Numbered from the whole stretch's first letter, positions 5,017 to 61,900 are shown. The stretch: DNA of 63,866 nt, filler included, from Asterionella formosa (GCA_002256025.1; 11 parts of 11 records of this genome joined end to end with filler, not necessarily neighbours in it); one strand, 5' to 3'. The notes: a model not told the origin generated them from the sequence alone. Numbers and translations are program-made.

Positions 5017-5772
5017 AATGACTACTTCACTAGGAGGTCGTGATTTACTCCTTTGTTGATGTTTGTATCTTATTTTCTCCTTTTTCCTGCGCAACAACTT
5101 TTGGCGAGTCTCATTGATATTAATAGTTGTTGTTGCTGTAGTAGCTGAACAGCTTTCTCCCTTTGCGTATGTTGCAATGTCAGGTCTCGTCGAGTATTAT
5201 CCTTTTGTTCACCATGAACGTGACCATGACCATGACCATGACGACTATGGCGTATTTTTGCTCCTTCTTCATCCTTTACTGTAGCATCAGCAGGAGTTGT
5301 ATCATGAATGATGCCTCCTTTACGTTTCTGCTGGCGGGTCGAGCCAAGACGGATGTGATGTTCCTTTTCCTGTCTCAATAGCCGGAATCGCTCATCCGTC
5401 ACTCCAAAAAGTCGTCTTGTGCTTCAGTGTCAGTGTCAATAGCTACCAGTAGTGCATCCCCCAGTATCCTTCGAAGAAACAGGACTTTATCTTTATGGAA
5501 CGCAAAGTGATGGAAAGCAACAGCAAGTCGGTTTTCCGTACATTTAGCTAAATACTCGAAGAACCTGAAAAGGACGTTTGATTCTTTCGTGTGGTAGGCA
5601 GTGTGGCCTTGTACCAACATTCAACTGTACATATATGTTGAAAGGTCTCATACTCCTTCCCGTCTGACGGGTTTCCTCTTACGTAGGACTTGCATGTTAT
5701 ACCACTACCGGTAGTATTGTTATCTTCTTTCTGCTGCTAGCCTTTGTGCTAGTTTTTGCTATTGACCTTACT
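5017..5772 (+). repeat. Dispersed repeat family, copy 1
   Basis: About 5017-5630 matches 52070-52688 in reverse complement; about 5635-5772 matches 41535-41665 in reverse complement. Confidence 0.85.
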
Positions 5773-5872
5773 NNNNNNNNNNNNNNNNNNNNNNNNNNNN
5801 NNNNNNNNNNNNNNNNTTAATTAATTAANNNNNNNNNNNNNNNNNNNNNNNNNNNNNNNNNNNNNNNNNNNN
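5773..5872. other. Assembly gap with synthetic TTAATTAATTAA spacer (same at 11644, 17515, 23381, 29248, 35112, 40974, 46833, 52689, 58540; plain gap 14684-15438)
   Basis: Identical N44-TTAATTAATTAA-N44 pattern; the spacer places stops in all six frames. Confidence 0.97.
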
Positions 5873-6833
5873 AGTCATCGTTCAAGTGTTCGGTACGAAT
5901 CGCAATAATTTTGCGATTTGCTGGAATCTGAGAAAGATAAAACCCAAAATTGTACTTGTTGTGAGTAGAGAAACCTTGCTCTCCTTTTATGGCCATGCTT
6001 GCCCGATTTTGGCAAACAGATTTCTGCTTGCCCTTTCTCCCTAAGCCTTTCTCCGCTAATTCATTTAATGTTGAGTAGCATTCCACAAACAGGGGCGCCT
6101 TTGCCTTGTAGCGATCGTCTTTTTGATCCTTCCTTATCTTCTCATATTGGAACCATGATATTATTCGTTTCAAGGGGTTGCGAAGTATGAACAAATAATA
6201 GTTGAAGTCGCCGTTCGCACAATCATCGAGTGTTGTATGCATCACGTTAGTAGTGAATCTTGGGAGACGACCTAGGGGAATGGCGAAGTTTTTCCCGCAG
6301 GCAGGATAGCGAAAGCCAAAATAACAGGCCAAAGTGCTTCCTGCAGTCTTTCCTACGTGGACGAAGCACACTTTACGGCCTGGTGGCACTTCCGGTGGCC
6401 TCATTGGAAATTTTGTATACCAGGGCATTTCTTTCGTACCGTTCACTGCTGGTGTTACAATTTTGTCCTTTTCCTTGCCGACCGGTGCTACAACTTTGTT
6501 CTTCTCCTTGAAGGCCCGTGTCAAACCTTTGTTCTTCTCCTTGAAAACCGGCGTTACAACTCTATTCTTTTCCTGTACTTCTGGTGTTACAACTTCTTTC
6601 GTCCACTTAACTGAGATTGGTTCAACTTCTTCTTTGTCTTTGACTATCTGTGATACAATGGTTGCTGGAACCTGTGCGCCAAATTCATGATAAGAAATGT
6701 TCACCATTTTGGACGACCCTTGCGCCTCCACTAAAAACTGACTGAAAATGAAGGCTGTGGACAGCCATAAAGACGCTAGCCCGATGATGACAATCAATCG
6801 CATGAATACGGGCATTGTTGCGGGACTCTTCAT
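5873..6833 (-). CDS. Golgi-type (type II membrane) sulfotransferase family protein, 3' end lost in gap
   Basis: N-terminal TM helix; Lys-rich stem with KEKNKVVxP-like repeats; 5'-PSB-like motif FVHVGKTAGST; 3'-PB-like motif LRNPLKRIISWFQY. Confidence 0.75.
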
Positions 6834-9699
6834 CGCGAAATTAAAAAATTCTAGGGATTGGGAAAGTCAAAAGAACGAGGTGAGTGAAGGGTGAACCTAC
6901 ATGGTACCCGTGGTACTGGTACCTGGTACCCTGGTACCGGTTCTACTGTGTATACCACCATGATATACCGGTAGTACCTGCTACTATGATGTTAATATGT
7001 GTTTATACACAAACGAAACTGATGAATGATATGATATATTTATTGGGCAGCAAATTATATACGGTATTTATTTTTATAGATATGAGAATAGTTTGTTGTC
7101 ATTAAATATTTATGCTTCGCATAATAGCAACCAATGTTGTCACGATGATGGGAATGAAAAATATAATGGTCATTCTTACCTAAGAGCTGACGGGTTCTTA
7201 ACGGTCGTCTGTTACAACGGGCGAGGTAGAGCCCATACAGAAATGTACAGGAGTGCGCCAGCTGGCTCCGAGGAGAGTGAGCAATGTTGGAAGGCAAACC
7301 TGGCTGGCGAGCAACCCCTGACTGTACTCACGAATCGCGTTCCGGTGACAGTACGACGTATACCGGAACTAGATAACGTCCAGTTTTAAGAGTATAACGT
7401 CAAGGTGCCCCGCTTGCTTCTTGTCCCGGATTTTTCGAATTTTTCGTTTTGCTTACCTCTTGTACCTCTGGGAGGTACGGGAAACTCCGTACTTCCTCGC
7501 TACGTGGAAAATTCAATATGTGTATCGTGCACAGACCTTGCTGTTTTTTCCAAATAAAATTCTAGTCGCGCGTTCTTCTGCGAAGTTCGCGTACTTCTTG
7601 AAAAGTACGCGCGACTACCATTTCAAATATTTTTTGATACTCGTTGTCACACCATGCTCAACGCATCGTTCTTGGTTTCAAAAAAGCAGTCATTCTCCAT
7701 TTGACCAGTGGATCATAATGACAAATATTTGACACACTGACGGAGATCGAACGAAAAGACCGCAAAAGAACGAGAATCCCGGATATACGACGTTTTTCTG
7801 CGGTCTTTTGCGAACTTCGCGTTCTTTTGCGGTCCTTTGGGAAAACATGATGCGAGGTCGATTTTAGATAAAACACCGTTTCGTACGTTACTTTTCGTAC
7901 TTCGGAGTTTCCGTCAACTCCCTGTGCTACATAAACGTATTGCATGGTTGAAACAAAACCCTGATGACCAGAACAGTGGGAGACGTATGTGGGTCTTAGT
8001 ATCTTGGAGTTGTGGTAAAAGACGGTTCTTACTACCAGGTAAATAGAGATAAGTTTTTCATTTTGCGCAACTTGCTGGTAGTTTACATGTCTGAGCTGGG
8101 CTAATGTGTGCCAAACAGCCATGCTGGACCTATGAAGAAAACCCAGTTACAAGTAGTCCATGTAGATAGAAATCATGTTGCTTATCAGCAATAAATCAAC
8201 AAACAGAGCTCCTTGTTGGATGCTGCCCACTGTAGTAGGTCAACAATGGCATATGGTGATCCAACTATTCTAAACTAATAAATAGTGAATTATAAATCAA
8301 TTTTTGCTTTTGGCCTGAGCCCTTGTAGACAATGGAGCATTGTAGAGCACACATATGTACAAATAAATCTCTTTTCGATGAAACAATGAGGCATCGAGAT
8401 GTTGTTCTTTGTCATCAAGCCCACTTGTGGGTTTCCGAAACTAATGTTTCTGCTATATCTAAACGAATGTAATAGATACAGTTAAAATCATTTACAATAC
8501 GCTAGCGACTATTCGATTCTATCTATTTGACTAGTATACAATAACCAATGAGAGAGAGACGACATGATTACTGTTGTCAAATTGTCAGCGATTTGTTGTA
8601 GTTGTTGCCGACATAATGACAATGAATTTTGACTTATACCGTTATACTTTTACCGTTTCAAGGGTCAGTGTCCAGGGTATAAACCGGTATATTAAGACAT
8701 GTACGCAATGTATACTGACTCGAAGATGAGCAGAATAATTGGGTTTGTGCTTGATACATTCTAAGCAGTCAACACGGAATCCTACGTCGTGTAGGTAACT
8801 GTGAAAAAATTACATAAATAACATGATAATGCGTTTAGGTAAAACTTATTGGGATGCGTATAGGCACGGAATCTCCTACCAGGTACAGTACCAGTAATGC
8901 AAACAACGCGTTTGCGTTGGGATTTTCACTCCCGTTGGCATCGCATTTTATGGTTACAGAAGTCGAAACACTGTTTGGTTGGCATTTTTGTTCATCATGG
9001 TTAGCAGCAGCCTTAACCATCAAACCCTTATTTACTTTTAACTTAAGCAGCATGGGTCACGAGCACAAGCCAAGCCTCCATGGAAAGCCGCCAGCCCTTG
9101 CACAACGCGCTCTAAATATATAAATGAAGTTCTGTATAATTAGCTAATAATAAATAGCCCCCCCCAAAAAATTGCCATTATACGGTTTTAAGCATGTTTT
9201 CTGGATATCCCAGGTACAATCAATATACCGGTATATCATATCTTCCCCTTTAGTCTACCGGTATGCATTTATTACCACTCCCTGAGATCCACTGGCATAA
9301 GACATAAAACAAGGAAGAGTGATTGCTTTACTGGTAGTATGAATGGTATCATGAAGAAGCTTGGATTATGGTTTACAGAAGCTCAAAAGAGGACCTGATG
9401 GGGATGGCGAAATTGATGGTCGGCTCTTTTTATTGGGTAAATATTTGGTGGGCCGATTCAAAGTTGATAAAACAACTAGACAACAACGTATTTGGAACCG
9501 CGCGCTTGAATCTTTTTATGACGGTGATACTGACGTGTTCCATCGCCTTCCCGCAAATTCTTGGCTGGGCGTCCTCTCAAATGTAATTGTGAGGAAATAA
9601 TTACAGCGATTGCAGATATCCTGTATCGCAAGCGTAGTAGTACATATCTTAAATTACCACGCTTGCCCTTCCCAAGTCAACAGTTTTTGATAATAGAGG

Positions 9700-10305
9700 G
9701 GATGTGTGTGTTTGATGGTAAAATTGGTATTTGGCCATTTGTTCACCAAGTGGCAGCCCAAAGGACTTCCACTTATCGACCAGCAGGGACCATGGAAACA
9801 AAATCCCTCCCAGTTACCAAGCAGACATATGCTGACATGATCATGAATAATTTTTTACCTGTGATCAAAGAGAAGTGGCCCGATGACAACAAACGAATAT
9901 ATCTACAGCATGACAATGCATCCACACATTTCAGTTCCAATTATGCTCCCTTTGTACTACTACTAGCTACAGCAAAAGCGGAAGGCTGGGATATTCAATT
10001 GACAAAGGAACCAGCAAACAGTCAAGATTTAAATATCAATGATCTATCGTTTTTCAGGGCATTGCAGCCAGGTCAATGGGACTTCATGGAGGAATCAAAC
10101 GATGATGTTGACAGCTTGATAGAGGCAATGCAGTCAGCATTCAATTCATGTGATCCCAAACTATTAAATTTTTTCTTTTTTACCATCACAGGGTTGTATG
10201 GAGGAAATCATTTTGGTGAATGGCAATAATAACTATGATATACCGCACATGGGGAAGGCAACTTTAAATCCGGTGGGATTGCTTCCAGATAGGCTATCTG
10301 CATGA
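9700..10305 (+). mobile_element. Plant-type mariner (IS630/Tc1/mariner, DD39D-like) transposase C-terminal remnant
   Basis: FDGKIGIWPFV...AQRTSTYRPAGTMETK...KEKWP...IYLQHDNASTH...EPANSQDLNINDLSFFRALQ. A frameshift in the T-run at about 10170-10181 leads to QGCMEEIILVNGNNNYDIPHMGK. The N-terminal half is absent. Confidence 0.85.
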
Positions 10306-10619
10306 AAAGGAGCAGATGAATTGGCCTCACATTTCTCAATGAAGAGTTCTAATAATAAGGTGGTGTGCAGGTAGGGTTTTTTCGTTGCCAGCACCTCTAT
10401 GGCTGCATTGGATTGACAGACAATCCTCCTCCTTTTCATTTTTTAAATATATATAAATATGGTGCTACTCGGAGTGCATCTAATTGTAACTTAGAGCTTC
10501 AACTGAATAGCAACAAGTCTATTTTATTAACACAGCAGTAGAATTGCTATTATCTAACAAGTGATCACCTATTTTGATGACTTCCTCCTCCTTAACAGCA
10601 TCTTCAATCTTGACGATTT

Positions 10620-11057
10620 CATCAAGAAACGTGAATAGCGCAATTCCATAACCTCGCATATTCATTCTTTTTTCTTTTGCTGATTAGAGTCTTTGAGTAG
10701 TTCAATAACTACTGCAGTACGATGAACACAATTCGTTGCCTCAAATGTGTCACGAACAATTCTCCTGGAAAGATATCCAGCTCTGCACCTTTGACCTTCT
10801 GGATGGAGGTCACAATCCATCATCACCTGGATTGTATCCTTGAGTTCTTGTAGGACCTCACCCAGCACTGTACACTGCCGATGAACAAAGACCACTGATC
10901 CAACTTTCACAGTTGATCCGCAACAGCAATCACGATGGGCACAGCTGCGCCCATTATTGCTTACCATCAAGCCGAGGATCTGACCATCAGGAATGGGCAT
11001 GTTGTCAATGTCAACATCCATTTTGACGATAATGATGATGGTGATGGTGATGGACAT
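10620..11057 (-). pseudogene. Small Cys/His-motif protein (GRSCxxH..C.CG), frameshifted at 3' end
   Basis: GQILGLMVSNNGRSCAHRDCCCGSTVKVGSVV...CRAGYLSRRIV...AVVIEL; the tail MNMRGYGIAIH lies in another frame. It resembles uncharacterised stramenopile proteins (recollection, not searched). Confidence 0.45.
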
Positions 11058-11757
11058 AATAATACTAGTAGAATCAACACATTGGCATTGTTTGATATAT
11101 AAATGTACCCAATGTATATATATGTATGTTAAATTGCTTTCGATTAATTTATTTAGATGCTAAATATTTAATTTAAAAAACAGAGTTAATGTTCACATTT
11201 ATGTAACTCATATAAATCGCCATTTTCCGAGTAAGCCGACCCTCATGTAGAAAATTGGTATGTAGTCGACATAATCCGTGCCAAAATAAGCTGCTCGGCA
11301 ATGAGGGTTCCGATATTCGATCCAACTATTTCGGACAGAGGAAGTACCAGTTACTCTGACCTATGCTCCGTAATAAACCATCAGCCAGCAAGGGCAGTAA
11401 ACGAAAGTGTGGTCGCTGATATTACTGGTATGCATTTCGGTCCTGCAAGCAAACATACTAACGAGTTTCATTTTTTCACGGAACAATAGCACTACCAGGT
11501 GCCTACGACCATTCTCCTTTGCCTTGTTGCTATCGAACAATAAAGGAATATCATGCAATCAAATGTTCATCAGATCCCTGAAGAATACCTTGACGCCCAA
11601 CGAGCGGCGATTGAAGCTGTCTATGTCGGACGTGCCACACTGGNNNNNNNNNNNNNNNNNNNNNNNNNNNNNNNNNNNNNNNNNNNNTTAATTAATTAAN
11701 NNNNNNNNNNNNNNNNNNNNNNNNNNNNNNNNNNNNNNNNNNNAAACACAACTCTCC

Positions 11758-12723: not shown

Positions 12724-12999
12724 TAGGTACATCTAGCTAATAAAAAATATTATCGTTACTAGCCATCCATCTCGATTTGTTCTTTTTGTAACTTTGTATA
12801 ACAGGAGTACCGGTATTATGCAAGTGACTTATGTAATAGATATACTAGTATATGTTTCGTTTGCTATATATCCATATATACTCCTCACCTTTGCCTGTTC
12901 TCCAAGTATACCATACCATATTTTATATCGATATACACACGCCATCATGTTGTTTCTCCCCACTTCCACTCAACACTCCATCACATCCAAGTTTTCTTT

Positions 13000-16856: not shown

Positions 16857-17804
16857 TAGGCAAAAAATTTGCTCAACTACCTCATTGATTGTCCTTGTGC
16901 TTGATACATTACCCGGCATATGATGTTGTATCGTAGCAAAACAGAAGAAAAATGAATAATTTAGTGAAGCACACCGTTTAGCAATCATGACTGCAAATCA
17001 TGTATTATATGCGGAGGGTTCTTGCCGCCATACTTATGCTTTGTGTCGCTGCAATTTCGACGTGCACAACAACTAGACACTAATCAACTACCGGTAGTAG
17101 CACTTGTGAGTTGATACTTGGTAGTTTCTTGATGTGGATGTAGATAACAAATTTGTAGGAGGCCTCAAGTTTCATTGTTGTATCCCTTGTTTTTGACGAT
17201 CACGAGGTGGTATAGGAATCAGAAATAATTGTTCAGACCAAACTTTAATTGCAATGCAAGTGTTTCCTTCACTCTTTTGTGGTTATGTGCTATTCTTTGA
17301 TATCGTCGTCTGATATGTGGTTCAGTATTGATAATCTAAATATATTTAGGTCCAGTCCTTTACAGCTAGCTACAGACGAAAAGTACCTGGTACATAAGGT
17401 TTGAACATCAAGAACACCAAGCAAATCGCATAAAGATGTTGCTTCACACAACGAGAAGAACATGGCGAAACTACAGAAATGCATACCCGGTAGACGACTG
17501 TTGTATGTGTGCATNNNNNNNNNNNNNNNNNNNNNNNNNNNNNNNNNNNNNNNNNNNNTTAATTAATTAANNNNNNNNNNNNNNNNNNNNNNNNNNNNNN
17601 NNNNNNNNNNNNNNTATCCATACCAACACCACAACTACAGTCCTTCAAGCCAATCGCACCAACAGCAACAAGAACAGAAAGCGTCGCTTGGTTGAGGACA
17701 CAAATACTGCCACCACTCATACTGCTGCAGCGGCCACTGCGACTGACAACACGTCAAGTGCTATTATTAGTGCAGACAAAAACAGTAGCAGCAACAACAA
17801 CAAG

Positions 17805-46484: not shown

Positions 46485-46485
46485 C

Positions 46486-46832: not shown

Positions 46833-46932
46833 NNNNNNNNNNNNNNNNNNNNNNNNNNNNNNNNNNNNNNNNNNNNTTAATTAATTAANNNNNNNNNNNN
46901 NNNNNNNNNNNNNNNNNNNNNNNNNNNNNNNN

Positions 46933-47067
46933 CTAGATTTGTCCTTCAATTCTTTCACTGGCACACTTCCGACTGAGATTGGTCTTTTGACAACAAGTCT
47001 CAGTGGACTAGGATTGAGTAACAATTCATTTACTGGTTCAGTTCCCCTAGACTTTGGTCTTATCTAA
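46933..47067 (+). CDS. 3' fragment of a plant-specific-type (24-aa) LRR protein
   Basis: Manual translation LDLSFNSFTGTLPTEIGLLTTSLSGLGLSNNSFTGSVPLDFGLI*; upstream part in gap; absent from the ORF track. Confidence 0.8.
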   Translation, partial: LDLSFNSFTGTLPTEIGLLTTSLSGLGLSNNSFTGSVPLDFGLI

Positions 47068-49290
47068 TATTCGTTGTGCACGTGTGAGGGACAGAATCAA
47101 ACAATGTAAGTATGACATACGGTTGGATTAATGTTTACTTGGATGACAATTTAACTATGAATATACATAAATACATTTATTTTATATATAATAAGGTGAG
47201 TTAAAAGTATGTACATAATAATAATGTAGTAGTGGTATGAACGAAATTGATACACTCCTCAGCGTACACTTCGCTGTACACCAATACGGATAGGAAAGGT
47301 ACAGTGCTGTGTAAGGTACCAGGTATTCCCTCACTCATCTCTGTCTGCTTCGAAAAGCTGATTTGCTTGTTGCTGTTGTGACGATCACTTCCTTACTTGA
47401 TTGAGACTTTCTCCAGAGCGAGTTCGCTCATGACGGAGAAACAACGACGACATAAAGTCATCAATGAATGACATGGAACCGAATGAACTACTCAGACAAC
47501 ACTCCAGTAAGAAGCTGCTAAAGTACTACAGTACAACTACCGGTACACTGCTTGTGTTGAGAACAGAGTCGACCAGCCATGTCTGTTCGTCCCTCTAGTA
47601 TTACCAGTACTCGACTACTCTTATTCCTACTGGTATGAACTGATATGAGTTCATCGTTGTGCATCGTAATTGCAGAGGTGGTTGGCAGCCAGCCAGCAGT
47701 TCGTTTGGATTAGGCTTTACATAGCTATTACAGTGCTCTGGATGCTTCCGGTTCCAGAACTCATCAAGGCTTTTTATGCTGCTGGGTTGGCTTGGCTTGG
47801 CTTGGCTTGGGTATCTCTTCACACAACTGCAGCGTTGTGAACCAGCAGTTCAGCTGCTACTGCCATTGCCACTGCTGTCAAATCCTGATTCATCATTAGA
47901 ATCAGAAGACAACAACACTTGAGTTGGATCCAGCGACGAGTGAAACTACCAGTATTGTTCCTGACTTGGAGGCGACCTCAATACACTGTGATCTCAGTCT
48001 CGCTACTGCTTGTATGGTACTTGATGGATTCTGGAGAGAACCTCCACTTGGATCATTGAATCAAACTTTATCACAAGAAAGGAACCTCGATTATCGAATG
48101 GCTAGACATGAGAAGCGGCCACAACGACGACATTGAAACCAGCCACACAGCAAATACAAATTTATTGTTTCTAGACCAAAGCTTAAAAGTCTGCATACCG
48201 GTATTCGCTTCAAGCTGTTCACCAGCCACGGGGGGGGGCATTGATTGTTCTCTACATGTGATTCAACTATGGTACCCTTACTGAAGCTTTGAGGGAAGCT
48301 GCCAAGTTCTTTCTTGTCACGATCTGGAACCTGACTTAATCATGGAGAATGAAAGCCACAATCAAAATAATGAACAACTTGCCCTTTAGTATAGTTTATT
48401 TATTTTTTCATTTATTTGCCAATCCGCAGGTTTCCTTTTTGATGGCAAACTATTGTGGTAACGGTACATACAAAGCTATCAAACATGGAAGGACCTATAT
48501 ACATTACCGGTACTATTCATCATCAGTGCAACTGCCCTATTAAATATCACTTGAATGCTGATTATTCTACTTTGAAACTTGTCCTTGGACATCATTACAC
48601 CGGCAGCAGATTCTGCTACTGGTACTTAGTATGGAGTAGCAAATTCGGCTATTGGATCTTCATCAGAATAGGAGTCCTTGCGAAGAGTGAATTTCTATTT
48701 GGAAATATCTTGTATATGATATATCATATGATGTCCAAGCGCCAATTTCATTTTATCAAATAATTCCAATGGAACCATATACCATATCTTTGGTGACTTA
48801 CCGCTTACTGCACCAACTGATGAATCAGATATCCATAGTACTTGATGGGTACTGGTACAACGTGGTTGTACCATCTACGTAGATACATTACAACCTTGTA
48901 AAAAGTAGTGCTGGAACGGCCTCAAGTCCCAACTTGTTGGACCTACCATTACAGCAGGGCACTAATAGGCCAATTCGTCTTTAGATTGCATCTTATCAGC
49001 ATGTCTGAAAATTTTAAGGTCCGGCCACTGCTGACCATGTGGAAAAGGCCCATTAATCCAAACTATATCGCCCGTGCAGATGCATAACCCAACCTCGTAG
49101 CGAACACCAGGGCCATTGAATGAAGACAACATGTTTCAAAGCCCCCCTCAAGGAAAGCGTCAGAGGTATTTAGTGCGTGCTCGTCACGAAACAGTGAACA
49201 GTGAAATTGATGTGGACAAGCATGGTCCTGTATTTGAACAAACTTATTCACCATGTCTGTCGTAGCTTCCCGTAAGCAGCCTGGAGGAAA

Positions 49291-49750
49291 TTATCTATGG
49301 TGGTAGATATTAAAGTTGGGTTCGTAAATTTTGCTAAAATGATTGTTCGAAGGCGATGCCTTGGTGGCAAGTTCTCGTAGCTTTTCCATTAGTAGCTCTA
49401 ATCGTTTGAAATACTCTGTCACTTCCTGCAGCAGTGACATCGTACTTGGCTCGATATTGGCTGTCAGCATCGCCACGTGCCATGCGAGAGGTTTGGCCCT
49501 ATCGATTATCTCGATGAGCTCCTTGTTGGGAAGTTTTGCTGGTACACCATTTCCCGTGGGAAAATGTGTTAAATAATTATTTACTTCAATTAGACGGTCT
49601 ACGAAGGCTTTTATCCCGCCGTTACATAGTCTTAATTGATAACGCATATAAGTTTTCTGCTTAGAGAGCCCATCTAAAGGTATGAACCGGTTGTTTAGGG
49701 CTTCAATTGCAGAATTGTATAAGGCTTCGTCTGCAGCGGGAGAGTCCTCA
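49291..49750 (-). mobile_element. Ty3/Gypsy gag-like remnant
   Basis: FIPLDGLSKQKTYMRYQL...FVDRLIEVNNYLTHFP...ELIEIIDRAKPLAW, resembling stramenopile Gypsy gag; next to an integrase remnant. Confidence 0.65.
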
Positions 49751-49754
49751 AAAA

Positions 49755-50160
49755 TGTTAGCCTACCGGTAGCATTCTTACGTGCATCTATTCTAGAGGTA
49801 CATAGCTATATACCAATAATTATCTCGTAGCATAAATAGCTGCGGGTACATAATGCAATATGTACTATGGGCTAGTATACAGCATCACGTACTAATCATG
49901 ATCAATCCCGTGTACATGTATGTGTACCACATATGGGTACCCTGGTACCATGGTAGTCATGTGCGTTATATGAAAGGGTACACCTTTCATTAGGGTTGAC
50001 CTGGTATACATACACAGTGTGTATTGCGTAAATCTCTTCGTTGAGAGTAAACAAGTATATGGTCTGTATAGAAGAGCCTATAAAATAAGGTTAACATTAT
50101 AGAGGACTTATACCATCTAATATAGTATTTCTAGCTTGGTACATACTGTACCATAGGTCA
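49755..50160 (-). mobile_element. Putative LTR
   Basis: On the minus strand TG begins right after a PPT-like catgggggcaag following the integrase end; the distal CA boundary (~49755) is a guess. Confidence 0.4.
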
Positions 50161-50470
50161 CTTGCCCCCATGAATTGCCAAGGCAAAATACGGGTGGACA
50201 CGGCGAATGTTAAGACGCTGAGACACGATGCCACGGAGTATTTGGACAGTGCCATTTGTATATACCTGTGTGACAGTATGTGGCCCATCAGTGGGGCTCA
50301 TCAATTTCGGGAGGAGTCCTGGACGGATGACCGTGATTTGGTCACTGATCTTATATGTATGGGGAATACAAGATTTGTTTTCCTTGGCATTCGAAGCATT
50401 TATGCTGACCTGTTTGTTGTGGCGGATGGCCTCCCAATTCACCTTAAAGGCAATATTGAGGAGCATGACA
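50161..50470 (-). mobile_element. Ty3/Gypsy integrase C-terminus + PPT
   Basis: MLLNIAFKVNWEAIRHNKQ...KENKSCIPHTYKISD...KLMSPTDGPHTVTQVYTNGTVQI...LNIRRVHPYF (GPY/F-type module). Confidence 0.85.
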
Positions 50471-50686
50471 CTGCAATTTGTCACTGGAACGTCTGTATTG
50501 CAAGGAAATGATGGAAATATCAAAAAGTTTGCCATTCATGGAGTGGATAAAAATTCATGTTTTTACCCATGGGCACATACATGTTTCAATCGCCTTGACC
50601 TACCTGACTACCAGTCAAAGAAGGAGCTTGAAGAAAAACTTAGGCTGGCTGTGACCACTTCTTGCATTGGTTTTGGCTTGGATTAG
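50471..50686 (+). pseudogene. Orphan HECT E3 ligase C-lobe fragment
   Basis: LQFVTGTS...LQGNDGNIKKFAI...PWAHTCFNRLDLPDYQSKKELEEKLRLAV...GFGLD*; catalytic Cys motif present, upstream gene missing. Confidence 0.88.
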
Positions 50687-50929
50687 GTAGAATGCAAACA
50701 TTATGACTAGTTTCCCATCTTTTGTATGGCTGTAGTGGTAGTAAACACCAGAAGCTGTCCATTGATTTAAATAACCAAAATAATTAGGGTTAGGTAAAGG
50801 AAGGAGCTACAATGACGATTATCCAATGACGATGAGGTGACTAATTAACTTGCCAAAAAGTAATGAGACTACTGGTATTTTGCTTTTCGCCTGATGCTAG
50901 GGTTAGGGTTAGGTTGGTTGTAGTGATAA

Positions 50930-51830
50930 CATCTTCTGCAGCAATCTTCAATGTGTTTGGGCAGTATTCACAACCAATTTCCGATGTGCTGTGCAAGCAT
51001 AGAGTACTGCAAAGTATCATTCTCATTTGATATCAGATTCTTCATAGTGATTTATTTGCAGCACGCTTTGTTGTTGTAATTCAAAGCCAAGTTCCCAAGT
51101 ATTGAACAACCATATTCTTGCACAGTAGCATTCTTAGGTTGTTCTTCCATAGCAGACAAAATTGTAGTGATACCTCCTTCTTTAACAATCATCAACTTAT
51201 TATTGTCATTATTCACAACGAAGTTCTGAAGCTTCATGAAACCTTCTTCTTGCCCAGTAGCATTGACTAAAGAAATCATCATCATCATCATAGAAGGCAT
51301 AATTGTTGTAATTTCTTCTATAGTCAAGTCAGTATTGACCTTGTGGATACAATTCTTTTTTGGATTAACAAGTCCTTCAAATTTTGTTAATAAATTATCA
51401 TCATGAATTGGATATCACTTGACAAAAAGTGAAATCCAGACTTTATGGTCCTTGAGTGCCTCAGCTATGATGGCCTTGGTACCCTCATTACCAATTGAAT
51501 TACCATTGAGATATAGTAGCATACTGAGATCAAGTGCAGTCAAGATGGTATTGACCGTGAGGAGGGCCTCTGCAATGGCCTTGGCATGATCAGCAACAAT
51601 AGATTTACCTCCAAGATAAAAAAGTGTGGTCAAGACAGCATTGACCAAGACGGCCAGCAATGCAATTTCCTTGGCGCCATCATCACCAATTGAATTATAA
51701 CAGAGACTAATAAGTTCAGTCAAACTTGGATCATTTTCTTTCCACCATTTGACACAGCCATCTTTCCAATTCCTCTGTTACTGTTTTCCCTCCAGATGAT
51801 AGTGAAACCATTGTCAATCTCATCTTGAAT
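50930..51830 (-). pseudogene. Degraded LRR-ARM family member (copy C)
   Basis: Same 5' leader ttcaaga(c/t)ga(c/g)attgacaatg, KENDPSLTEL cap, NSIGDDGAK LRRs and GGITTILSAM...VQEYGC ARM repeat; many indels. Confidence 0.85.
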
Positions 51831-52069
51831 GAAATTTAAGTTTTTTTAGCAACTTGCTCCCCATCCCAGTATAAAAGTGTCCAGTGTTTCTGACTTGGTA
51901 CATAATAACCAGGTTATAAATACTGCCTTACTAAAATAATGCATAACTGTGGTTATTTGTCATCAAGTCTGACTTGGTGGCATCAGACTTTGGACTCTAG
52001 TCCAGACTTGGGATAAATAAGTCAGTGTATTCATTTATAAATAAATATATATACTATGAATAATAATAT

Positions 52070-52688
52070 ACATGTACAGCCGAATGTTGGGACAAGGCAA
52101 CCTGCTATGTACACAGAAAGAATCTAACGTCTAGTAATTAAGATAGCCAAATGTACGGAAAACCGACTCGCTGTTGCTTTCCATCTTTTTGTGTTCCATA
52201 AAGATAAAGTCCTGGTTCTTCGAATGATACGGGATGATGCACTACCGGTAGCTATTGACACTGACACTGAAGCACGAGACGACTCTTTGCAGTGACGGAT
52301 GAGCGATTCCGGCTATTGAGACAGGAAAGTAACATCAGATCCATCTTGGCTCGACCCACCAGCAGAAACGTAAAGGAGGCATCATTCATGATACAACTCC
52401 TGCTGATGCTGCAGTAAAACATGAAGAAGGAGCAAAAATACGCCGTAGTCGTCATGTTCATGTTCATGATCATGGTGAACAAAAGGGTACTACTCGACGA
52501 GAACTGACATTGCAACATGCCGGAAGGGAGAAAGCTGTTGCTACTACAGCAACAACAACAACTACTACTTTCAATGAGGCATGAAATATCAATGAGACTC
52601 GCCAGAAGTCGTTTCACAGGAAAAAGGAGAAAATAAGATACAAGCATTAACAAAGGAGTCAACCACAACCTCCTAGTGAAGTAGTCAT
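52070..52688 (-). repeat. Dispersed repeat family, copy 2
   Basis: Reverse complement of about 5017-5630; cut by gap. Confidence 0.85.
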
Positions 52689-52788
52689 NNNNNNNNNNNN
52701 NNNNNNNNNNNNNNNNNNNNNNNNNNNNNNNNTTAATTAATTAANNNNNNNNNNNNNNNNNNNNNNNNNNNNNNNNNNNNNNNNNNNN

Positions 52789-53361
52789 AAAAGTCATTGG
52801 ATCCTTGCCCTCTCGAACCTCACCCAATCCATCATTGTTTTCAAGAGCAATAATTCGGAAGAAACCTCGCATTAAATTGCTTAACTCTTGCTCAAAGGTA
52901 GCAGAGAAGCCTGTTCCATTATGTAGACGAAATAAATTGTAGATTGCAGATCTTTTGTTTCCATAACCGCTCTTGGACAGCCTCTCTTTTGTACGCCAAT
53001 GCCGCAATCCTTGCAAGTAGACCATGAAGCCTGATGGTGTGATCTCGTTTTGCAAAATAACAGGTTCCTCTGCTGTATTCTGTAGCAAAAGGGCAAAGCC
53101 TGATTTGATGTGCATCCCGCCTTGCCTTGTTCCCATTCCTTCTGCTTCAATTTCCAGTTGTTGGAGTCGGTTTCTAGCATTTGCTGTGAGCCACCCAGTT
53201 TGATGCTCCAAGCACCACCTTGCAAACAGGAGGCTATCAGCGATGTATGCCCGCCTTGTTCCACCAGCCACAATATTTTCTATCATCATTTGTTCATTAA
53301 CATCCTGGAGAGGATGCCCATGAATAGGGACAGTATTTGCCATCATGAGGTGGAGATGCAA
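52789..53361 (-). mobile_element. Crypton-like tyrosine recombinase, N-terminal part
   Basis: LSKSGYGNKRSAIYNLFR...FEQELSNLMRGFFRIIA...REGKDPMTF resembles the region preceding the YR catalytic domain in stramenopile Cryptons; the catalytic part would lie in the gap. Confidence 0.6.
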
Positions 53362-53422
53362 TGAATGATGAGTATGATGTGGTGTGTGCTTTTGAAATTT
53401 CTTGCTTGATGCCGATCCTCAA

Positions 53423-53585
53423 TGAAATCGCCCATAAACACATTATACTCATGTAATTTTCATCATATGAATGCATTTTTTTCCTCGCTGAAATCGCCCA
53501 TAAACACATTATACTCATGTAATTTTCATCATATGAATGCATTTTTTTCCTCGCTGAAATTGCCCATACACACATGATACTTTCG
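53423..53585. repeat. 66-bp tandem repeat x~2.5
   Basis: tgaaat(c/t)gcccata starts at 53423, 53489 and 53555. Confidence 0.9.
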
Positions 53586-54283
53586 TAGTTAGCATCAAAG
53601 TGTATAAAAAAAGATTCCATCAGGACAACTACTACATATGTAAAATGCCACGAGAAAACAGCTACCAGAAAAAAACGGCCATTTGTCCGGTATTCCCCTC
53701 TAATGATCAAACTTCACTCCAAGTTCAACATAGAAGTGCTAGATATACCGTGTGAAACTATAAACTGGGAATGAACTGAAGTTCAGACATTGGTCGAAAA
53801 ACCGGCCTACTGTCCGAACATTTCTACGAAAATCAGCGTAAGTGTCCGGTAGATGTCTGATGATGTACGTCCACAAAGCACACCCAGATAGTTGAAGTTG
53901 AAAGTATACACTTGAGTGTATACTTTTGTACGGCTACCTGAGGAGCATCGTGGAACCTGGTACGTGAGAGGTATTGAGTAGAGTCTAAAAGTATACAAAA
54001 AGTGTAGACTAACCACCAGATAACTGCCGTTTAGTGCATACTATTTGCGGGTATGTATGAGGAGGAGAGATGAACAAAATTTCCGCCATTTTCCATCTAT
54101 CATGCATGAGGCATGAGTTGCATCGTGGAATTCTACGACAAGTGGCTAAGAAACTATTTGGCAGAAGGGCTGATGAATTACTTTTCAATCACGACGACGA
54201 GGAGAACACGAACAAGAACCAAACAAAGAAGTCGCTCGAATAAACAATAGACAACTCTCATTACATTCAAGACGACATTGACA

Positions 54284-57200
54284 ATGCTAAGAGCATTTGG
54301 TAGGAAAACAAAATTGGAAAGAAATGTCAAACGGTTGAAAGCGAATGATCCAAGTTTGACTGAACTTAATCTCTTTAATAATTCAATTGGTGATGACGGA
54401 GCCAAGGCCATTGCAGAGGCTCTCAAGGTCAATACTGTCTTGAATGGACTTTCTCTCTCTTATAATTCAATTGGTGATGACGGAGCCAAGGCCATTGCAG
54501 AGGCTCTCAAGGTCAATACTGTCTTGACTACACTTGATCTCATTAGTAATTCAATTGGTGATGACGGAGCAAAGGCCATTGCAGAGGCTCTCAAGGACAA
54601 TACTGTCTTGACTGCACTTTATCTCGGAGGTAATTCAATTGTTGAAGATTTACTAAAAGATATAAAGAAACTCATTGATGCAAACAAGAACCGCGATCCG
54701 ATTGCTGCAATTCTTTCAAAGATGCAAATGAATGAACGGAATGCTGACCTTCAAATAAAAGGTTGTTCAGAACTTTGGGACTTGGCTTTGAATGAAGACA
54801 ACAGGGTGGCAATTGCTGATGCAGAAGGTATCACTACGATTCTGTCTGCAATGAAGACTCATTCCTCAAATGCTACTGTGCAAGAAAAAGGTTGTGGAAC
54901 ACTTCAGAACTTGGCTTTGAATGACAACAACAAGGTGACGATTGCTGAAGCAGGAGGTATCACTACGATTCTGTCTGCAATGAAGATTCATTCCTCAAAT
55001 GCTAATGTGCAACACTATGGTTGTGGAGCACTTTCTAGCTTGGCTTCGAAGAATAACAACAACAAGGTGACGATTGCTGAAGCAGGAGGTATCACTACGA
55101 TTCTGTCTGCAATGAAGAATCATTCCTCAAATGCTAATGTGCAATACAATGGTTGTGCAGCACTTGATGACTTGGCTGATAGTAATGAAAATAACAAGGT
55201 GGCAGTTGCTGATGCAGGAGGTATCCCTATGATTCTGCCAGCTATGAATAATTTTTCATCCAATGCTAATGTACAATTCCAAGGTTGTTCAGCATTTTGG
55301 AACTTGGCTGACAATAATGAAAACAACAAGGTGATTATTGCTGAAGCTGGAGGTATTCCTACAATTCTCTCTGCGATGAGGACTCATTCCTCAAATGCTA
55401 GGGTTCAAGAGTATGGTTGTGGAGCACTTTGGAAATTGGCTTTGAATAATGGCAGCAACAAGGTGACGATATCCAATGCTGGTGGAAAAGCTGTAATTGA
55501 GTCTGCTATGCGAAATTACTCATCCAATGCTGGTGTTCAAGAAAATGGTAATGAAGCACTTAGCATATTGACCCAACATTGGAAAAAGACAGAAAAAGAA
55601 TTGGAAAGATATGTCAAACTGTTGAAAGCAAACAATCCAAGTTTGTCGTACCTTGGTCTTGGATGGAATTCAATTGGTGTTGGTGGAGCCAAGGCCATTG
55701 CAGAGGCTCTCAAGGAAAATACTGTCTTGACTAAACTTTCTCTCACAGGTAATTCAATTGGTGTTGACGGAACCAAGGCCATTGCAGAGGCTCTCAAGAT
55801 CAATAATTCTGTCTTGACTAGACTTTATCTCGGAGATAATTCAATTGGTGATGACGGAGCCAAGGCCATTGCAGAGGCTCTAAAGGTCAATACTGTCTTG
55901 ACTACACTTGATCTCTTTGGTAATTCAATTGGTGTTGACGGAGCCAAGGCCATTGCAGAGGCTCTCAAGGTCAATACTGTCTTGACTACACTTCATCTCT
56001 ATTGTAATTCAATTGGTGTTGATGGAGCCAAGGCCATTGCAGAGTCTCTCAAGGTCAATACTGTCTTGACTACACTTGATCTTGATCGTAATTCAATTGG
56101 TGACAGCTTACTAAAAGATATTCAAATTTTGGTTGAGGCCAAGAGGGACCGCAAACAAAATCCTTCTTCCCCAACAAAGCCAACACCAAGTGATAGCAAT
56201 CCCACTGAATCCATTTCCATAGATGAGTCGATACAGAAGGCAGCTACAGAGCTTCACAACTTGCCTTCGAATGCCAACAACAATGTGCCACTTGATGAAG
56301 CAGGAGGGCTTACTGCTACTTTAATTTCGTCTCAAATTGATGCAATTCTTTCAAAGATGCAAGAGGATGAGCAGAATGATGTCATTCAAATGAATGGTCT
56401 CTTGAAGCTTGCGAACTGGGCTGAGAATAATTACAGCAACCAAGTGACAATTGCTAAAGCAGGAGGTATCACTACAATTGTGTCTGCGATGAAGGTACAT
56501 CCTAAGAATGCTGAGGTTCAACAATGTGGTTGTGAAGCACTTATTCACTTGGCTGAGAAGAATGACATCAACCAGGTGAAGATTTCCAATGCTGGTGGAA
56601 AAGTCGCAATTGAGTCTGCTATGCGAAATCACTCATCCAATGCTGGTGTGATTGAAAAAGCTAAAAGAGCACTTTCTATCATTCAACCAATCCCACCAAC
56701 AACACCTAATAATCTCATTTCCATAGGTCGATCGAAAATGAAGGACGCTATGGACAATGTGGATTCAAGACCAATCGAGCTTCCTGTCGAATTCATTAAT
56801 AGTTATACAAACAACTTTTATGAAGCCTTGAAACTTGGTGAAGGAGCTTTTGGTGTTGCCTACAAAGGCCAGATTGAAAATCGGGTCTTTGCTGTTAAAC
56901 GTATGCTTGCCAATATTGCTGTTGAGAGCGATAAAGTGGAGGAAGTTAGAGATATTTTAAAAAGAGAATTGCAGGTGAGCTCATTTGAGGTATCATCTGT
57001 AGCATGTCGTTTCAAGTCTTTATGTTTCTCATGCTCCTGTCATACTGTTTCAGGCATTAAAGAGGTTCCGACACCCCAATATTGTAACTTTGTACGGTTA
57101 TCATTTGTCCTCTGATTTGACTTCTCTATACCTGGTATATGAGTTTGCATTGAAAGGTTCGCTTGATACATTCTATAAGAATGAACGAAGCAGAGCAAGA

Positions 57201-58539
57201 CTCTCGAGTGAGATCCGACTTCAAATCATGTACGACATTATTAGTGCCATCCACTTCCTGCATACTGTTACAAATGACTACCTTGGTCTGTTTCATCACG
57301 ACATCAAGTCATCTAATATCTACCTTCAACGGAACAATGCTGCCAAGCTGATTGATTGTGGTCTAGCCAAGTTTGTTCTTGTGGATGAATCCATTGAAAA
57401 CAGTGCAATTACTTTTTCAGTTATGAACACATCACATGGTGGAGTCTTTGGGACATCTGGCTACTTATGTCCATGGTATTCTAAGGGAGGTAACAAATAT
57501 GAAGCATCATGTGATGTTTACTCATTTGGCATTGTCATGATTGAGCTTGTGACAGGCTGCCTCCAAAATGATAGTGAGAAGTTTCGAGATTTCTATGAAC
57601 GCTACTTCCCATACGATTTTGAAGGAACTCAAGCAGAGGCACTGGAGTTGGCAATTTCAAAATTGGTGGAGGATGTTGATCCTCTTGCAGAGGAATGGGA
57701 AGATGGAATTCTGTCCTCGGTGTGTGCATTAGCCATTCATTGCATTCAGACGAATTGCGCAAAGAGGCCAAAGACTAATGAGTTGGTTGAAAAGTTGGAT
57801 CAACTTGTAAGGCAAACAGATCCTGATGTTGGTGGTGGAAGGCCCAAAGCATCCTTGAATAAAGGGCCTCATGGACCCTATGAGTCACCCTACGAGTGGT
57901 CTCAAACAACAGAATTGGAAAAATATGTTGAACGGATAAAAGAAAATGATCCAAGTTTGACTGCAATTGATCTCGTAGCCAAATCAATTGGTGACGATGG
58001 TGCCACGTTAACTTTGTCTCCGATTGCTGCAACTCTTTCAAAGATGCAAATGAATGAGCAGAATGCTGACTTTCAAAAAGAAGGTCTCGTTGAGCTTGCG
58101 AACTTGGCTAAGGCTAAGAATAATGAGAACAACAAGTTGATAATCGTTGATGAAGGAGTTATCAGTACAATTGTGTCTGAGAATGAAAACAACCTGAAGG
58201 CAATAGCTGATGAAGAAGGCATCGCTAGGACTCTGTCTGCAATGAAGGTACATCTAAAGAATACAGAGGTGCAAAAATATGGATGTGAAGCACTTTTTGC
58301 CTTGGCTGTGACTAGAAACAACCAGGAGACAATTGCTAAAGAAGAAGGTATCACTATGATTCTGTCTGTGATGAAGATTCATTCCTCCAATGCTGATGTG
58401 CAACATTATGGTTGTGCAGCACTTCAGAACTTGGCTTTGAATAAAAACAACCAGGAGACAATTGCTAAAGAAGAAGGTATCACTACAATTCTGTCTGCAA
58501 TGAATCATCATTCATATAATGCTGATGTTCTAGAATATG
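54284..58539 (+). CDS. LRRx4-ARM-LRRx6-ARM-IRAK/Pelle-like kinase-LRR-ARM protein (copy B), 3' end in gap
   Basis: Exons 54284-56974 and 57054->58539; 79-nt intron 56975-57053 at the same position and phase as in copy A. Kinase motifs GEGAFG, AVKR, HHDIKSSN, DCG, GTSGY; ~43-aa ARM-like repeats GGITTILSAMKxHSSNAxVQxxGC. Confidence 0.88.
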
Positions 58540-58640
58540 NNNNNNNNNNNNNNNNNNNNNNNNNNNNNNNNNNNNNNNNNNNNTTAATTAATTAANNNNN
58601 NNNNNNNNNNNNNNNNNNNNNNNNNNNNNNNNNNNNNNNC

Positions 58641-58918
58641 GTAGCAGCAGTCATAGACATATGGTGTTCTGTTGCTTGCTTATTACTCCAACTATTGGTT
58701 TTTAGTTTTACGATCATACGATCCTAAAACTATGATGATTTACTGTCCCACTGCAGTAGCAACAGTCCTGAACATATGGTGTTCTATTGGTTTTTAGTTT
58801 TACGATCATACGATCCTAAAACTATGATGATTTCCTGTTCCACTGCAGTAGCAACAGTCCTGAACATATGGTGTTCTATTGGTTTTTAGTTTTACAATCA
58901 TACAATCCTAAAACTATG
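58641..58918 (+). repeat. Left arm of long inverted repeat, made of ~91-115-bp tandem subunits
   Basis: catatggtgttct recurs at 58658, 58773 and 58864; 58641-58785 is nearly identical to the reverse complement of 63721-63865. Confidence 0.9.
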
Positions 58919-61900
58919 TATCACTTATTACCTGATACTGGTACTCTGTATATATATATGATATATTGTTTTTGTCATATGATGTACCAGTACACATGAA
59001 GAGCTCCCGCCCAAAAAAGGGGCTTAAACAATTTGCTACCAAAACCCTGGCGGTTTTGACATACACCAATTGAATGGTCTAAATAATTTGTTTCAACGGA
59101 CGTAGAAAATATCGATGCAAACAAATTTCAGAAATAATACCGGTACACGTAGTCGTGGAAAACAATGGACATATAGTGCATTTTTTTTCGAATTATTTAT
59201 ATGCAAGTATGATCATCTCAACCATATCAGATGTTCCATATCGAGAGCGCCTTTGAATTTTATAAATGTATAGCACTATATATATATTTACAAAAATTTA
59301 TTACTATATTTATGGCATATATATATTTGAAATCGTTCTGTCATGTTAACAAACAATGCCTGCTGCTTCATGAAAAATTACGTCGTAGTAAAGCACATGA
59401 CAAGAAAAGAAAGTTTACGCAATACATAACGAATAACATTGTGGCTTCGACACATTGCGCCTTCGAAGGATGGAGAATGTTTAAGGTAATGAAGCCATCA
59501 ATGTGGTAGTACTTGGATGACAATCGTTGGGAGGCAGGCAGGCAGCACAACAACAAATTGTTAACTAAATGCACATTTCCTTTTTTCTCAGTTGATTCAA
59601 CAGCTCGTTTTGCTTGTTGGGGAGCATCAATGTAAAACAAAACCAAATTGCGTAAGTGCTCTTGTCGCTCGTTTGACCTATTCACTTCTGTTGGAACAAA
59701 ACTGACAAAACGTTTACCTTCTCTCAAAGTTAAGATGACAAAAATGAACCGGTAAGTTTTATTCGACAACATTGGAAACCCGAAACTTACTTATTCAAGA
59801 ATTTGGCTTACTGACAAGTTACTATTACAGACTTATGCATCAGTTGCATTGATTTGTGGTAAGTGAAGCAAGAGGATATGATGGAATTGCGTGTTCTTGT
59901 GTCAATGTAACATGACTAGCTAACAAATCAATCCTTCTCATTGTTACTGTAACTGCATGCATAGGAATATAAAACCGATCAAACGGAATAGCCGGCGAGT
60001 TCACAATGAAACTAACAGCAGGGGGAGAGACACAACATCATAAGTAAGACATTGCTTGGCACAAGCTTGGCACAAGATTCAGAAAAGAGGAAGAAAAGGG
60101 TGAGACAGGAACAATATACATTGAGCCGAGTAGAGAGAGAAACATTGGGTTGCTGCCATGTAGATTAATAGATAGCTTTGCTTAATTTGATAGTCAAATT
60201 ACGATCCATTTCAATCTATTTTGAAACTATGCTTGTGATTAGAATTATGATCATGTTTACGATAGAATTACAATGAAACAATTCACATGATAGCATAGAG
60301 TTGAGCTGGTTTCAGGATACGTTGTAGTTATAATTTACATCAGGCGATCACGAGAAGTGAAAATCATATGAGAAGGTTTATTATATTGATGGGAAATGTT
60401 GTGGATCAGTTTATAAACATTGTGTGATGATAATGTTCTTATAATCATTATACTTCAAGGTCGGTAAAAAATTAATAAATCATCATAGTTACAAGATACC
60501 TTGATCATATTTTTGATCCAAAAATTATCATATATACAAAAGTCCTGTGCCACTTAGCTTACGATACCCTTGATCCTGTATGCATGATACTTTTTATTTG
60601 CAGACGTAGCAGGCGATATGCAAAAAGAAGCATGAGACTGTCTACTTATAGTAACACTGTGATTCTGGTTTCCTAATTTTCATGTCTCATTAGATTTTCT
60701 TTGTCATTGTAATAGTTCCTTAGCTTTGAAGACAGGAGCGTATTCTTTGGTGTATCTGGACTATTTCAATTGATGGCAGCAGTTGGATTTAGACACAAAC
60801 CTCGACAAAAGCACTAGTACTTTGTAGATGTTCATGAAGAGCCAGACACTTTGGCCTATCGAACACCAGTCAGTCTATAGTACTGCAAAAATGCAAGAAG
60901 CACAAGTTGAATGCCCATTTATGGATTCAAGTTTCAGTAGTGCAACAATGTAAATTATTAGAAACCGGAAGTCACATTTCATCTAATTACGGTTTTCATT
61001 AGCTATACTAGTAGCTAGTATTGATTGATGCGAGGAAGCAATGGTAGAATGGCTGCCAAACGGGCGGGGCAAACACAGAGAATCCTACTAATTTTTGTCC
61101 CCAATGATCCCAGACCCTTCTTGAATGTCACTTGCTACAGAAATTGTAGAACAGCCGCCATGATCTGTTGATTGTTGTTTTATGGTGCCAATGACCAAAA
61201 TCTCCAGAAATCTCAATGACTTGCTTGTTTCTTGACTTGAATGCAAAAGGGATCGAAACCAATGGGAAAATCAAAAGGGCACTAAAAATGCTCTCCAAAC
61301 ATCAGGACAATTATGAAAGAGATATGAAGGTCCTTGGGAGGAGAAGTAAAGGGCTGCTAATTGCTTGTTCTGGTCTTGCGGGAACAAGAATAGATTGACC
61401 CAAACAATGTTGACAAATAGGTACCTAGCTACCGGAAAAGGAAGCAATGCTTTCGGCATCATCAATCTAGCTATACACAAGCCTGCGCCACCTGACATCA
61501 ATATAGCTACCTCGACTTTATCAATGAAGAAGTCAATGGGTGGAGCATATGAGGAAAATCGGGGTTGAGGTTTTCTTGACGCCAATGTGGGCCTGATTGG
61601 TTGAAATCCTTGCAGATGAAGGCTTTGAGTAACCTGGGCCTGTGAAGCCAAAGGATAAAGAAAAATCTACAACAAAGGTGGTGAAATAGTGTTTAGGAGG
61701 GTGGAGCAAAAGTCATCATAGCTGAACGCATTCCAAAATTGTATAGACAATAAATGGTGGCATAACCTTGACTTGGCTGCTCTTGGCTGACAGCTGCCAA
61801 GTCAAGTACAAAGACAACGAGGGTGCACAAAAGCAAGACAGTCCAATTTTAATCAACTGGCTGATACTTAGTTGTGAGACTCACCATTCTGCAATGGGGT

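Follow-up and report, generated by a model that had tools for sequence, protein, structure and literature searches.

The eight-letter palindrome TACCGGTA occurs 18 times in a 63,866-nucleotide stretch of DNA from the diatom Asterionella formosa (GCA_002256025.1), the whole of which is referred to here as the window. Six letters have been gained or lost at TA dinucleotides where this word stands, and the TACCGGTA sites are probably scars left by the excision of TA-inserting, cut-and-paste transposons of the Tc1/mariner type, an origin that had been put forward in a preliminary description made from the sequence alone.

The window is a length-sorted concatenation of draft-assembly contigs and is not contiguous DNA. 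It consists of 11 contigs laid end to end in order of slowly falling length (5772, 5771, 5771, 5766, 5767, 5764, 5762, 5759, 5756 and 5751 letters, with the last piece cut at 5227), separated by ten identical spacers (N44-TTAATTAATTAA-N44). The 11 pieces can be treated as a small, random genome sample. The preliminary description had called the palindrome scattered; as the pieces are separate contigs, this means that TACCGGTA is contained in nine of the 11, and distances across the linkers are meaningless.

All 18 positions given in that description were confirmed; its rough estimate from base composition was about one site, and the computed expectations are 0.23 to 0.63. In 100 dinucleotide shuffles the expectation was 0.23; the largest count was 2, and none reached 18. 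The window-wide excess also survived comparison with a Markov background, under which 0.25 sites were expected at order 1 and 0.63 at order 3, and TACCGGTA was ranked first among 8-mers by order-3 z-score. The maximal, order-6 model predicted 33.3 of the 36 both-strand counts because the 7-mers within TACCGGTA hardly exist outside the 8-mer. The excess was also apparent for 6-mers (ACCGGT, 48 against 15.0; CCGGTA, 49 against 14.9), and 18 of the 24 ACCGGT sites were part of TACCGGTA. The absence of the palindrome from conserved coding sequences was likewise upheld: none of the 18 sites fell within Pfam-supported open reading frames (ORFs), which cover 23.2% of non-N bases (P = 0.009), nor did any after four long ORFs were added (30.4% coverage, P = 0.0015). 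The TACCGGTA sites and the two empty TA sites homologous to them are as follows.

5706-5713: TACCGGTA; only one TA in the paralog (41592-41593), an exact six-letter gap
6966-6973: TACCGGTA; lies 133 bases ahead of a minus-strand ORF start (ATG 6833), with TACTGGTA and TACCTGGTA at 6914-6928
9226-9233: TACCGGTA
9256-9263: TACCGGTA; 30 bases past the site at 9226
12808-12815: TACCGGTA; between convergent 3' ends of a methyltransferase ORF (to 12720) and an MTHFR ORF (from 13003), both Pfam-supported
17089-17096: TACCGGTA; downstream of the YchF/OLA1 gene
23956-23963: TACCGGTA; common to the paralogous copy at 29512
24022-24029: TACCGGTA; a 95-97% identical copy has an exact six-letter gap at TA
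29512-29519: TACCGGTA; paralog of 23956
29574-29579: empty TA site (TATATA) homologous to TACCGGTA at 24022
37632-37639: TACCGGTA
40402-40409: TACCGGTA; TACCAGTA lies 26 bases upstream
41225-41232: TACCGGTA
41592-41593: empty TA site homologous to TACCGGTA at 5706
47538-47545: TACCGGTA; six letters absent in contigs of runs X2 and X4, retained in X1 and X7
48196-48203: TACCGGTA; no indel among those listed
48505-48512: TACCGGTA; no indel among those listed
49763-49770: TACCGGTA; six letters absent from X1 and X4 contigs and from part of X7
52243-52250: TACCGGTA; the homologous position 5444 is TACCAGTA, a CpG transition
59138-59145: TACCGGTA

Whether the word arises by insertion or by substitution was examined in paralogs and in other samples. 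A self-BLAST of the window gave 94 high-scoring segment pairs, and five of the 18 TACCGGTA sites lay within paralogous alignments. At 24022 the sequence is AGCTATA-TACCGG-TATATG and that of its copy AGCTATA------TATGTG (95% identity over the BLAST match, 97% over 201 aligned columns). At 5706 it reads CAC-TACCGG-TAGTAT and the paralog TGC------TAGTAC, in an alignment of 5635-5772 (a contig end) with 41535-41664 at 74% BLAST identity. In both cases the added letters are flanked by TA on each side and the unscarred homolog has one TA, as expected of an excision footprint. Six of the 216 gap runs in the self-BLAST were six letters long, and two of those six are these TACCGG gaps at TA. The sites at 23956 and 29512 both carry the motif and were therefore counted as one event. 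The remaining pair places TACCGGTA at 52243 opposite TACCAGTA at 5444, a substitution that is a CpG transition.

Contigs of four public runs (X1, X2, X4 and X7, from three studies) were compared with the ninth piece (46933-52688), which holds five TACCGGTA sites. Indels were read as positions, lengths and depths, and 12 of the 44 were listed. The only six-letter indels among these start at the first T of the TACCGGTA sites at 47538 and 49763. The six letters at 47538 are left out in X2 (115/115 depth) and X4 (85.5/85.5), and not in X1 or X7; those at 49763 are left out in X1 (1050/1050), X4 (20.1/20.1) and X7 (4.2/11.4). The listed indels included no difference between runs at 48196, 48505 or 52243, and no insertion of an element at a TACCGGTA site.

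Eight events could thus be tested (5706, 24022, 23956 with 29512, 52243 with 5444, 47538, 48196, 48505 and 49763). In four of these, two between paralogs and two between samples, exactly six letters are present in one sequence and missing from the other, which retains one TA. The check that had been proposed, for six-letter indels at TA in paralogs and haplotypes, was therefore positive at 5706, 24022, 47538 and 49763. Substitution rather than insertion, which would have spoken against the footprint idea, is confined to CpG decay of motifs already complete.

This decay is evident in the one-letter variants of TACCGGTA. Among the 12 classes only that of the CpG transition, TACCAGTA/TACTGGTA, is in excess (21 against 2.49 expected); the other 11 are at background (10 in sum against 11.6). 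TACCGGTA is an all-or-none word with CpG decay, unlike the graded spread of a binding matrix, and the decayed TACCAGTA/TACTGGTA sites would mark older scars. The nine-letter form TACC(A/T)GGTA is also enriched (11 against 0.42), as are the ten-letter TACCATGGTA (1 against 0.13) and TACTAGTA (6 against 1.02). The preliminary description had noted both the decayed words and the nine-letter form as common, and all six nine-letter sites that it named are among the 11. One of the 11, at 57129, is probably a chance or coding match rather than a scar, since its paralog reads TACCTGGTG. The related words lie at the following positions.

134-141: TACCAGTA, CpG-transition variant
3774-3781: TACCAGTA
5444-5451: TACCAGTA, CpG-decayed homolog of TACCGGTA at 52243
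6914-6921: TACTGGTA
6920-6928: TACCTGGTA, nine-letter form
8033-8041: TACCAGGTA, nine-letter form
8877-8885: TACCAGGTA, nine-letter form
8889-8896: TACCAGTA, left end of a weak 448-base inverted-repeat candidate
9329-9336: TACTGGTA, right end of the weak candidate 8889-9336
11423-11430: TACTGGTA
17384-17392: TACCTGGTA, nine-letter form
26672-26680: TACCAGGTA, nine-letter form; the ORF around it matches retroviral protease at sub-threshold level (E 0.005, short of the Pfam cut-off)
37848-37856: TACCAGGTA, nine-letter form
39580-39587: TACCAGTA
40376-40383: TACCAGTA
41360-41368: TACCTGGTA, nine-letter form
43353-43360: TACCAGTA
47317-47325: TACCAGGTA, nine-letter form
47602-47609: TACCAGTA, paired with TACTGGTA 18 bases on
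47628-47635: TACTGGTA
47947-47954: TACCAGTA
48617-48624: TACTGGTA
48850-48857: TACTGGTA
49946-49955: TACCATGGTA, ten-letter form, the only copy
50870-50877: TACTGGTA
57129-57137: TACCTGGTA, inside a kinase ORF
58936-58943: TACTGGTA, common to the inverted copy at 63649
58985-58992: TACCAGTA
62195-62202: TACCAGTA
63568-63575: TACCAGTA
63649-63656: TACCAGTA, inverted copy of 58936
63683-63691: TACCAGGTA, nine-letter form
63699-63707: TACCAGGTA, nine-letter form

The proposed mechanism would begin with a transposon inserting at TA and duplicating it. On excision, single-strand cuts made by the transposase a few letters within either end would leave each flank with TA and the element's initial letters, CC to one side and GG to the other (top strand). 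End-joining would then give TA-CC-GG-TA, a net gain of six letters at the former single TA; joins keeping one more letter would give TACC(A/T)GGTA and, rarely, TACCATGGTA, and older scars would decay at the central CpG to TACCAGTA/TACTGGTA. These steps follow what is described for Tc1/mariner elements, in which the non-transferred strand is cut a few nucleotides inside the element and the joined 3' overhangs leave element-derived footprints (PMC8151067). The footprint of Sleeping Beauty is CAG (PMC8151067), and that of Tc1 in C. elegans is taCATGta (Eide and Anderson 1988, as cited in PMC3520976). The transposon would be the cause of the TACCGGTA sites, and its activity would have been recent enough for sites to differ between samples. 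About 47 sites lie above expectation in 62 kb, or about 0.8 per kb, a density that would be attainable because each hop along one lineage would leave one scar.

The ends of the donor probably begin with CC, with CCA or CCT favoured over CCG, because TACC(A/T)GGTA and TACCATGGTA are enriched and the by-products of CCG ends are not. The preliminary description had envisaged CCG ends annealing through CG. That detail was not supported: TACCGCGGTA, which it predicts, is absent from the window (0 against 0.01 expected), and TACCGTA/TACGGTA are not enriched (2 against 3.99), TACC(A/T)GGTA being enriched instead. The nine- and ten-letter forms would be compatible with CCA or CCT ends having either a one-letter mismatched overlap or none. 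The 3' overhangs of Sleeping Beauty/mariner are three letters long (PMC8151067), and TACC(A/T)GGTA is the form expected from three-letter CCA overhangs overlapping by one mismatched letter.

The donor was sought by inverted-repeat scans for TA-C... and TA-CC... ends, within 8 kb and 6 kb, which returned only known large repeats and the weak candidate at 8889-9336. TA-targeting transposons have nonetheless been in this genome, as a transposase relic shows.

9534-10226, plus strand: degenerate Tc1/mariner-superfamily transposase gene, recognised by homologs, motifs and family profile

This ORF has 58 homologs at E <= 0.001, some of them named transposase or Tc3 transposase and with PF01498. It carries QHDNASTH and NSQDLNINDLSFF (conserved QHDNA..H and NSxDLN..D) and matches the family profile at E 3e-86; it had no Pfam or PDB match, and its Atlas leads were all under 0.9. 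The best inverted repeat starts TA-CTCCCTC in 20 of 80 metagenome loci of its relatives. Ends of this kind would leave CTC/GAG scars rather than CCGG, so the family of the resident relic is probably not the TACCGGTA donor. Plant-type mariner-like elements with Stowaway-like ends (TA followed by CTCCCTCCGT) belong to the same protein family as the relic, and their ends too would leave CTC/GAG scars, unlike the CCGG seen here. TACCGGTA occurs once each in eight of the 80 loci, from which no conclusion was drawn.

A 2 kb marine metagenome contig (L001:176-2007) aligns with 9481-9689, 9703-10343 and 10626-11040 at 78-80% identity, spanning the transposase-like gene and an adjoining minus-strand ORF at 10665-11159. 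The window copy of the transposase lacks 367 bases relative to the marine contig, in which the transposase frame is intact; aligned residues 73-398 of the marine protein are 96% identical to a 398-residue protein (P0004, from a cluster of 55 member sequences). Either the transposase gene within 9481-11040 has long been resident, and may have been domesticated, or the region is a larger element with two genes. Bases 1-175 of L001 do not align upstream of window position 9481, and the contig therefore provides no outgroup for the site at 9329.

Three candidate element boundaries were rejected. A 5' end of the relic at 9273 (TA followed by CCACTCCCTGAG) had no inverted partner within three mismatches in 8000-11640 or in L001. 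An element end at 50006 (TA followed by CCAGGTCAACCC) had no partner, with 4 matches against 3.16 expected. A joint from 47666 to 48469, which skips 802 letters and has TA on both sides, was considered as an element, but its ends (ATTGCAG.../...GGTACA) are not inverted repeats and its sides are at most 35 letters. Further remnants of mobile elements were also observed: a PIF/Harbinger-type DDE_Tnp_4 fragment at 28338-28631 (minus strand, E 6.7e-10); a plus-strand ORF at 26635-27387, whose only match is the sub-threshold one to retroviral protease; a minus-strand ORF at 52744-53418 that resembles a recombinase N-terminal region by eye and has no Pfam hit; and a DUF6818 fragment at 45955-46278 (minus strand).

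A number of these results weigh against an origin by excision. The gain or loss of the six letters is unpolarised, there being no outgroup, and the nine- and ten-letter forms were never caught as indels among paralogs, where the single seven-letter gap was unrelated. One-sided mariner scars typically consist of TA, three letters and TA, and the classic forms TACCATA/TATGGTA are not enriched here (8 against 11.69). No inverted-repeat element with TA-CC...GG-TA ends lies within the 62 kb; in the best candidate, the 448 bases at 8889-9336, 12 of 14 letters match, and chance alone would produce an estimated 0.15 or so pairs of this quality. None of the 80 metagenome loci of the relic's relatives has a best inverted repeat that starts with CC. 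The footprint proposal of the preliminary description is supported as regards CCGGTA being added or lost at TA; a donor was not found in the window. Finally, the same word is known from another setting: TACCGGTA is an over-represented promoter motif, M94, of Phytophthora infestans (PMC3597505), ATACCGGTAT is listed as streme-5 in Plasmopara halstedii (PMC10031896), and the sister palindrome TACATGTA binds the MYB-related factor PsMyb37 of P. sojae in yeast one-hybrid and gel-shift assays (PMC11134190). TACCGGTA might by this analogy be a palindromic transcription-factor binding site under selection, the counterpart of M94/streme-5, with the six-letter differences as incidental turnover. The words at 6914-6973, which cluster just upstream of an ORF start (ATG 6833), are in keeping with this, as is a bias in the flanks: of 36 half-sites, 30 have A or C at position -1 and one has T. 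Binding sites, however, turn over by substitution and through graded variants, whereas half of the testable events are exact six-letter indels at TA, 11 of the 12 one-letter classes stand at background, and enrichment extends equally to a spacing variant that has one more letter at its centre. Nor is TACCGGTA confined to promoters: the site at 12808, between convergent 3' gene ends, is not in a promoter position, and several others lie in gene-poor contigs, as far as coarse, ORF-based gene models can tell. The indels, the lack of degenerate variants and sites such as 12808 argue against a site kept by selection as the origin, which is considered improbable. Because the word is an oomycete promoter motif, protein binding is plausible for at least some sites as a secondary use.

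The indels in themselves prove only that TA becomes TA-CCGG-TA, and the six letters could have been added by a process other than Tc1/mariner excision, such as the activity of another TA-duplicating superfamily or repair-templated insertion after a TA-specific nuclease. The lack of a donor in the 62 kb and the different ends of the resident relic's relatives would suit such a process. We know of no other process, though, by which four invariant letters come to stand between duplicated TAs. A TA duplicated on either side of a short constant insert is the hallmark of Tc1/mariner-type excision (PMC8151067; for Tc1, PMC3520976), and a different origin of the six letters is regarded as doubtful, on a par with the binding-site origin. 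A far smaller probability is assigned to TACCGGTA lying within, or at the end of, a dispersed repeat, for example a miniature inverted-repeat transposable element, or an artefact of sequencing, assembly or linkers. Artificial linkers do exist in the window and create a false excess of TTAATTAA (23 against 1.64 expected) by themselves, 20 of the 23 sites being linker. None of the 18 TACCGGTA sites touches a linker, though, and their flanks are mutually unrelated except in the duplicated pair 23956/29512, so that the motif is not part of a repeat family. The motif is also present in contigs of independent runs from other studies: none of the listed differences falls at 48196, 48505 or 52243, and 47538 is kept in X1 and X7.

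Taken as excision scars, the TACCGGTA sites have parallels. The Tc1 footprint TACATGTA of C. elegans is likewise an eight-letter palindrome, in which both ends of the element contribute two letters within a duplicated TA, a gain of six at TA (PMC3520976); the centre is CCGG here and CATG there, and TACATGTA is not enriched in the window (2 against 1.48). The C. elegans footprints are described as rare (PMC3520976), whereas TACCGGTA is the top-ranked 8-mer here. Sleeping Beauty/mariner (PMC8151067) and plant Stowaway/mariner scars (PMC4561436) share the TA target, staggered cuts and end-joining, and would share a small family of related scar words if the nine- and ten-letter forms are scars. 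The oomycete motifs M94 (TACCGGTA), M93 (TACATGTA; PMC3597505), streme-5 (ATACCGGTAT; PMC10031896) and motif-1, with PsMyb37 (PMC3520976, PMC11134190), share the 8-mer, the over-representation in non-coding DNA and stramenopile hosts. They came from expression-linked promoter searches and were read as binding sites, whereas the diatom sites are TA indel polymorphisms that extend beyond promoters. Seidl et al. weighed a Tc1 footprint origin for TACATGTA in Phytophthora and, without an indel test, dismissed it on grounds of abundance and conservation (PMC3520976). Judged by titles and abstracts, no paper in a literature search linked TACCGGTA to diatoms; none was found on diatom mariner-like elements, and, judged by titles, none of those found dealt with genome-wide enrichment of scars.

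Excision footprints are textbook phenomena at single loci. The TACCGGTA sites would represent a familiar type of event on an exceptional scale, large enough to shape the genome: what is unusual is a single scar word that is the top over-represented 8-mer and still segregates between natural samples. The mobile DNA of diatoms is regarded as dominated by long terminal repeat retrotransposons, and the scars would mean that a very active cut-and-paste transposon has operated in a diatom. They would also give a sequence-only clock of past hopping, running from intact to CpG-decayed scars. The findings reopen the dismissed footprint origin of TACATGTA in Phytophthora, to which the indel test is directly applicable. 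A wider suggestion, offered tentatively and thought rather unlikely, is that the TA-flanked 'promoter motifs' of stramenopiles (TACCGGTA and TACATGTA) originate as Tc1/mariner excision scars later bound by host MYB-related factors; if so, transposon hopping would keep seeding ready-made palindromic regulatory sites in non-coding DNA.

The gene content of the window is eukaryotic, with leucine-rich repeat (LRR), armadillo and kinase proteins, MTHFR, YchF/OLA1, PP4R3 and a HECT fragment. The best named relatives of the YchF/OLA1 protein are diatoms (Fragilaria at 79% identity; Mayamaea, Thalassiosira, Epithemia and Proboscia at 75-77%), and window DNA was also found in public runs labelled as algae, freshwater and lake metagenomes; together these point to a freshwater diatom. 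The spacers between the pieces are at the following positions.

5773-5872: spacer
11644-11743: spacer
17515-17614: spacer
23381-23480: spacer
29248-29347: spacer
35112-35211: spacer
40974-41073: spacer
46833-46932: spacer
52689-52788: spacer
58540-58639: spacer

A second palindrome, TAGCTA, is about three-fold over-represented window-wide (31 sites against 9.74 expected); the paralog alignments contained no four-letter gaps matching it, and its excess stays unexplained. In the ninth piece, each of the four runs compared showed about 5-20 times as much summed contig depth at 48853-49044 and 49813-50196 as in neighbouring stretches, and loose ends recurred at 48790 and 49836 across several runs; these high-depth stretches are probably short dispersed repeats. 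The last piece opens with one sequence (58641-58965) and, where the window ends, closes with an inverted copy of it (63629-63865; 149 letters, 98%); this is a genuine inverted repeat or else a fold-back of the assembly. The piece also holds a 92-base tandem repeat at 58692-58967. A 66-base unit is present three times in tandem at 53416-53613 (97% and 62% identity to the first). Two paralogous genes, at 687-3363 and 54251-58592, encode RNI-type LRRs and a protein kinase domain, with armadillo repeats only in the second; they share about 81% DNA identity over 1.1 kb, and further LRR fragments lie at 51055-51777.

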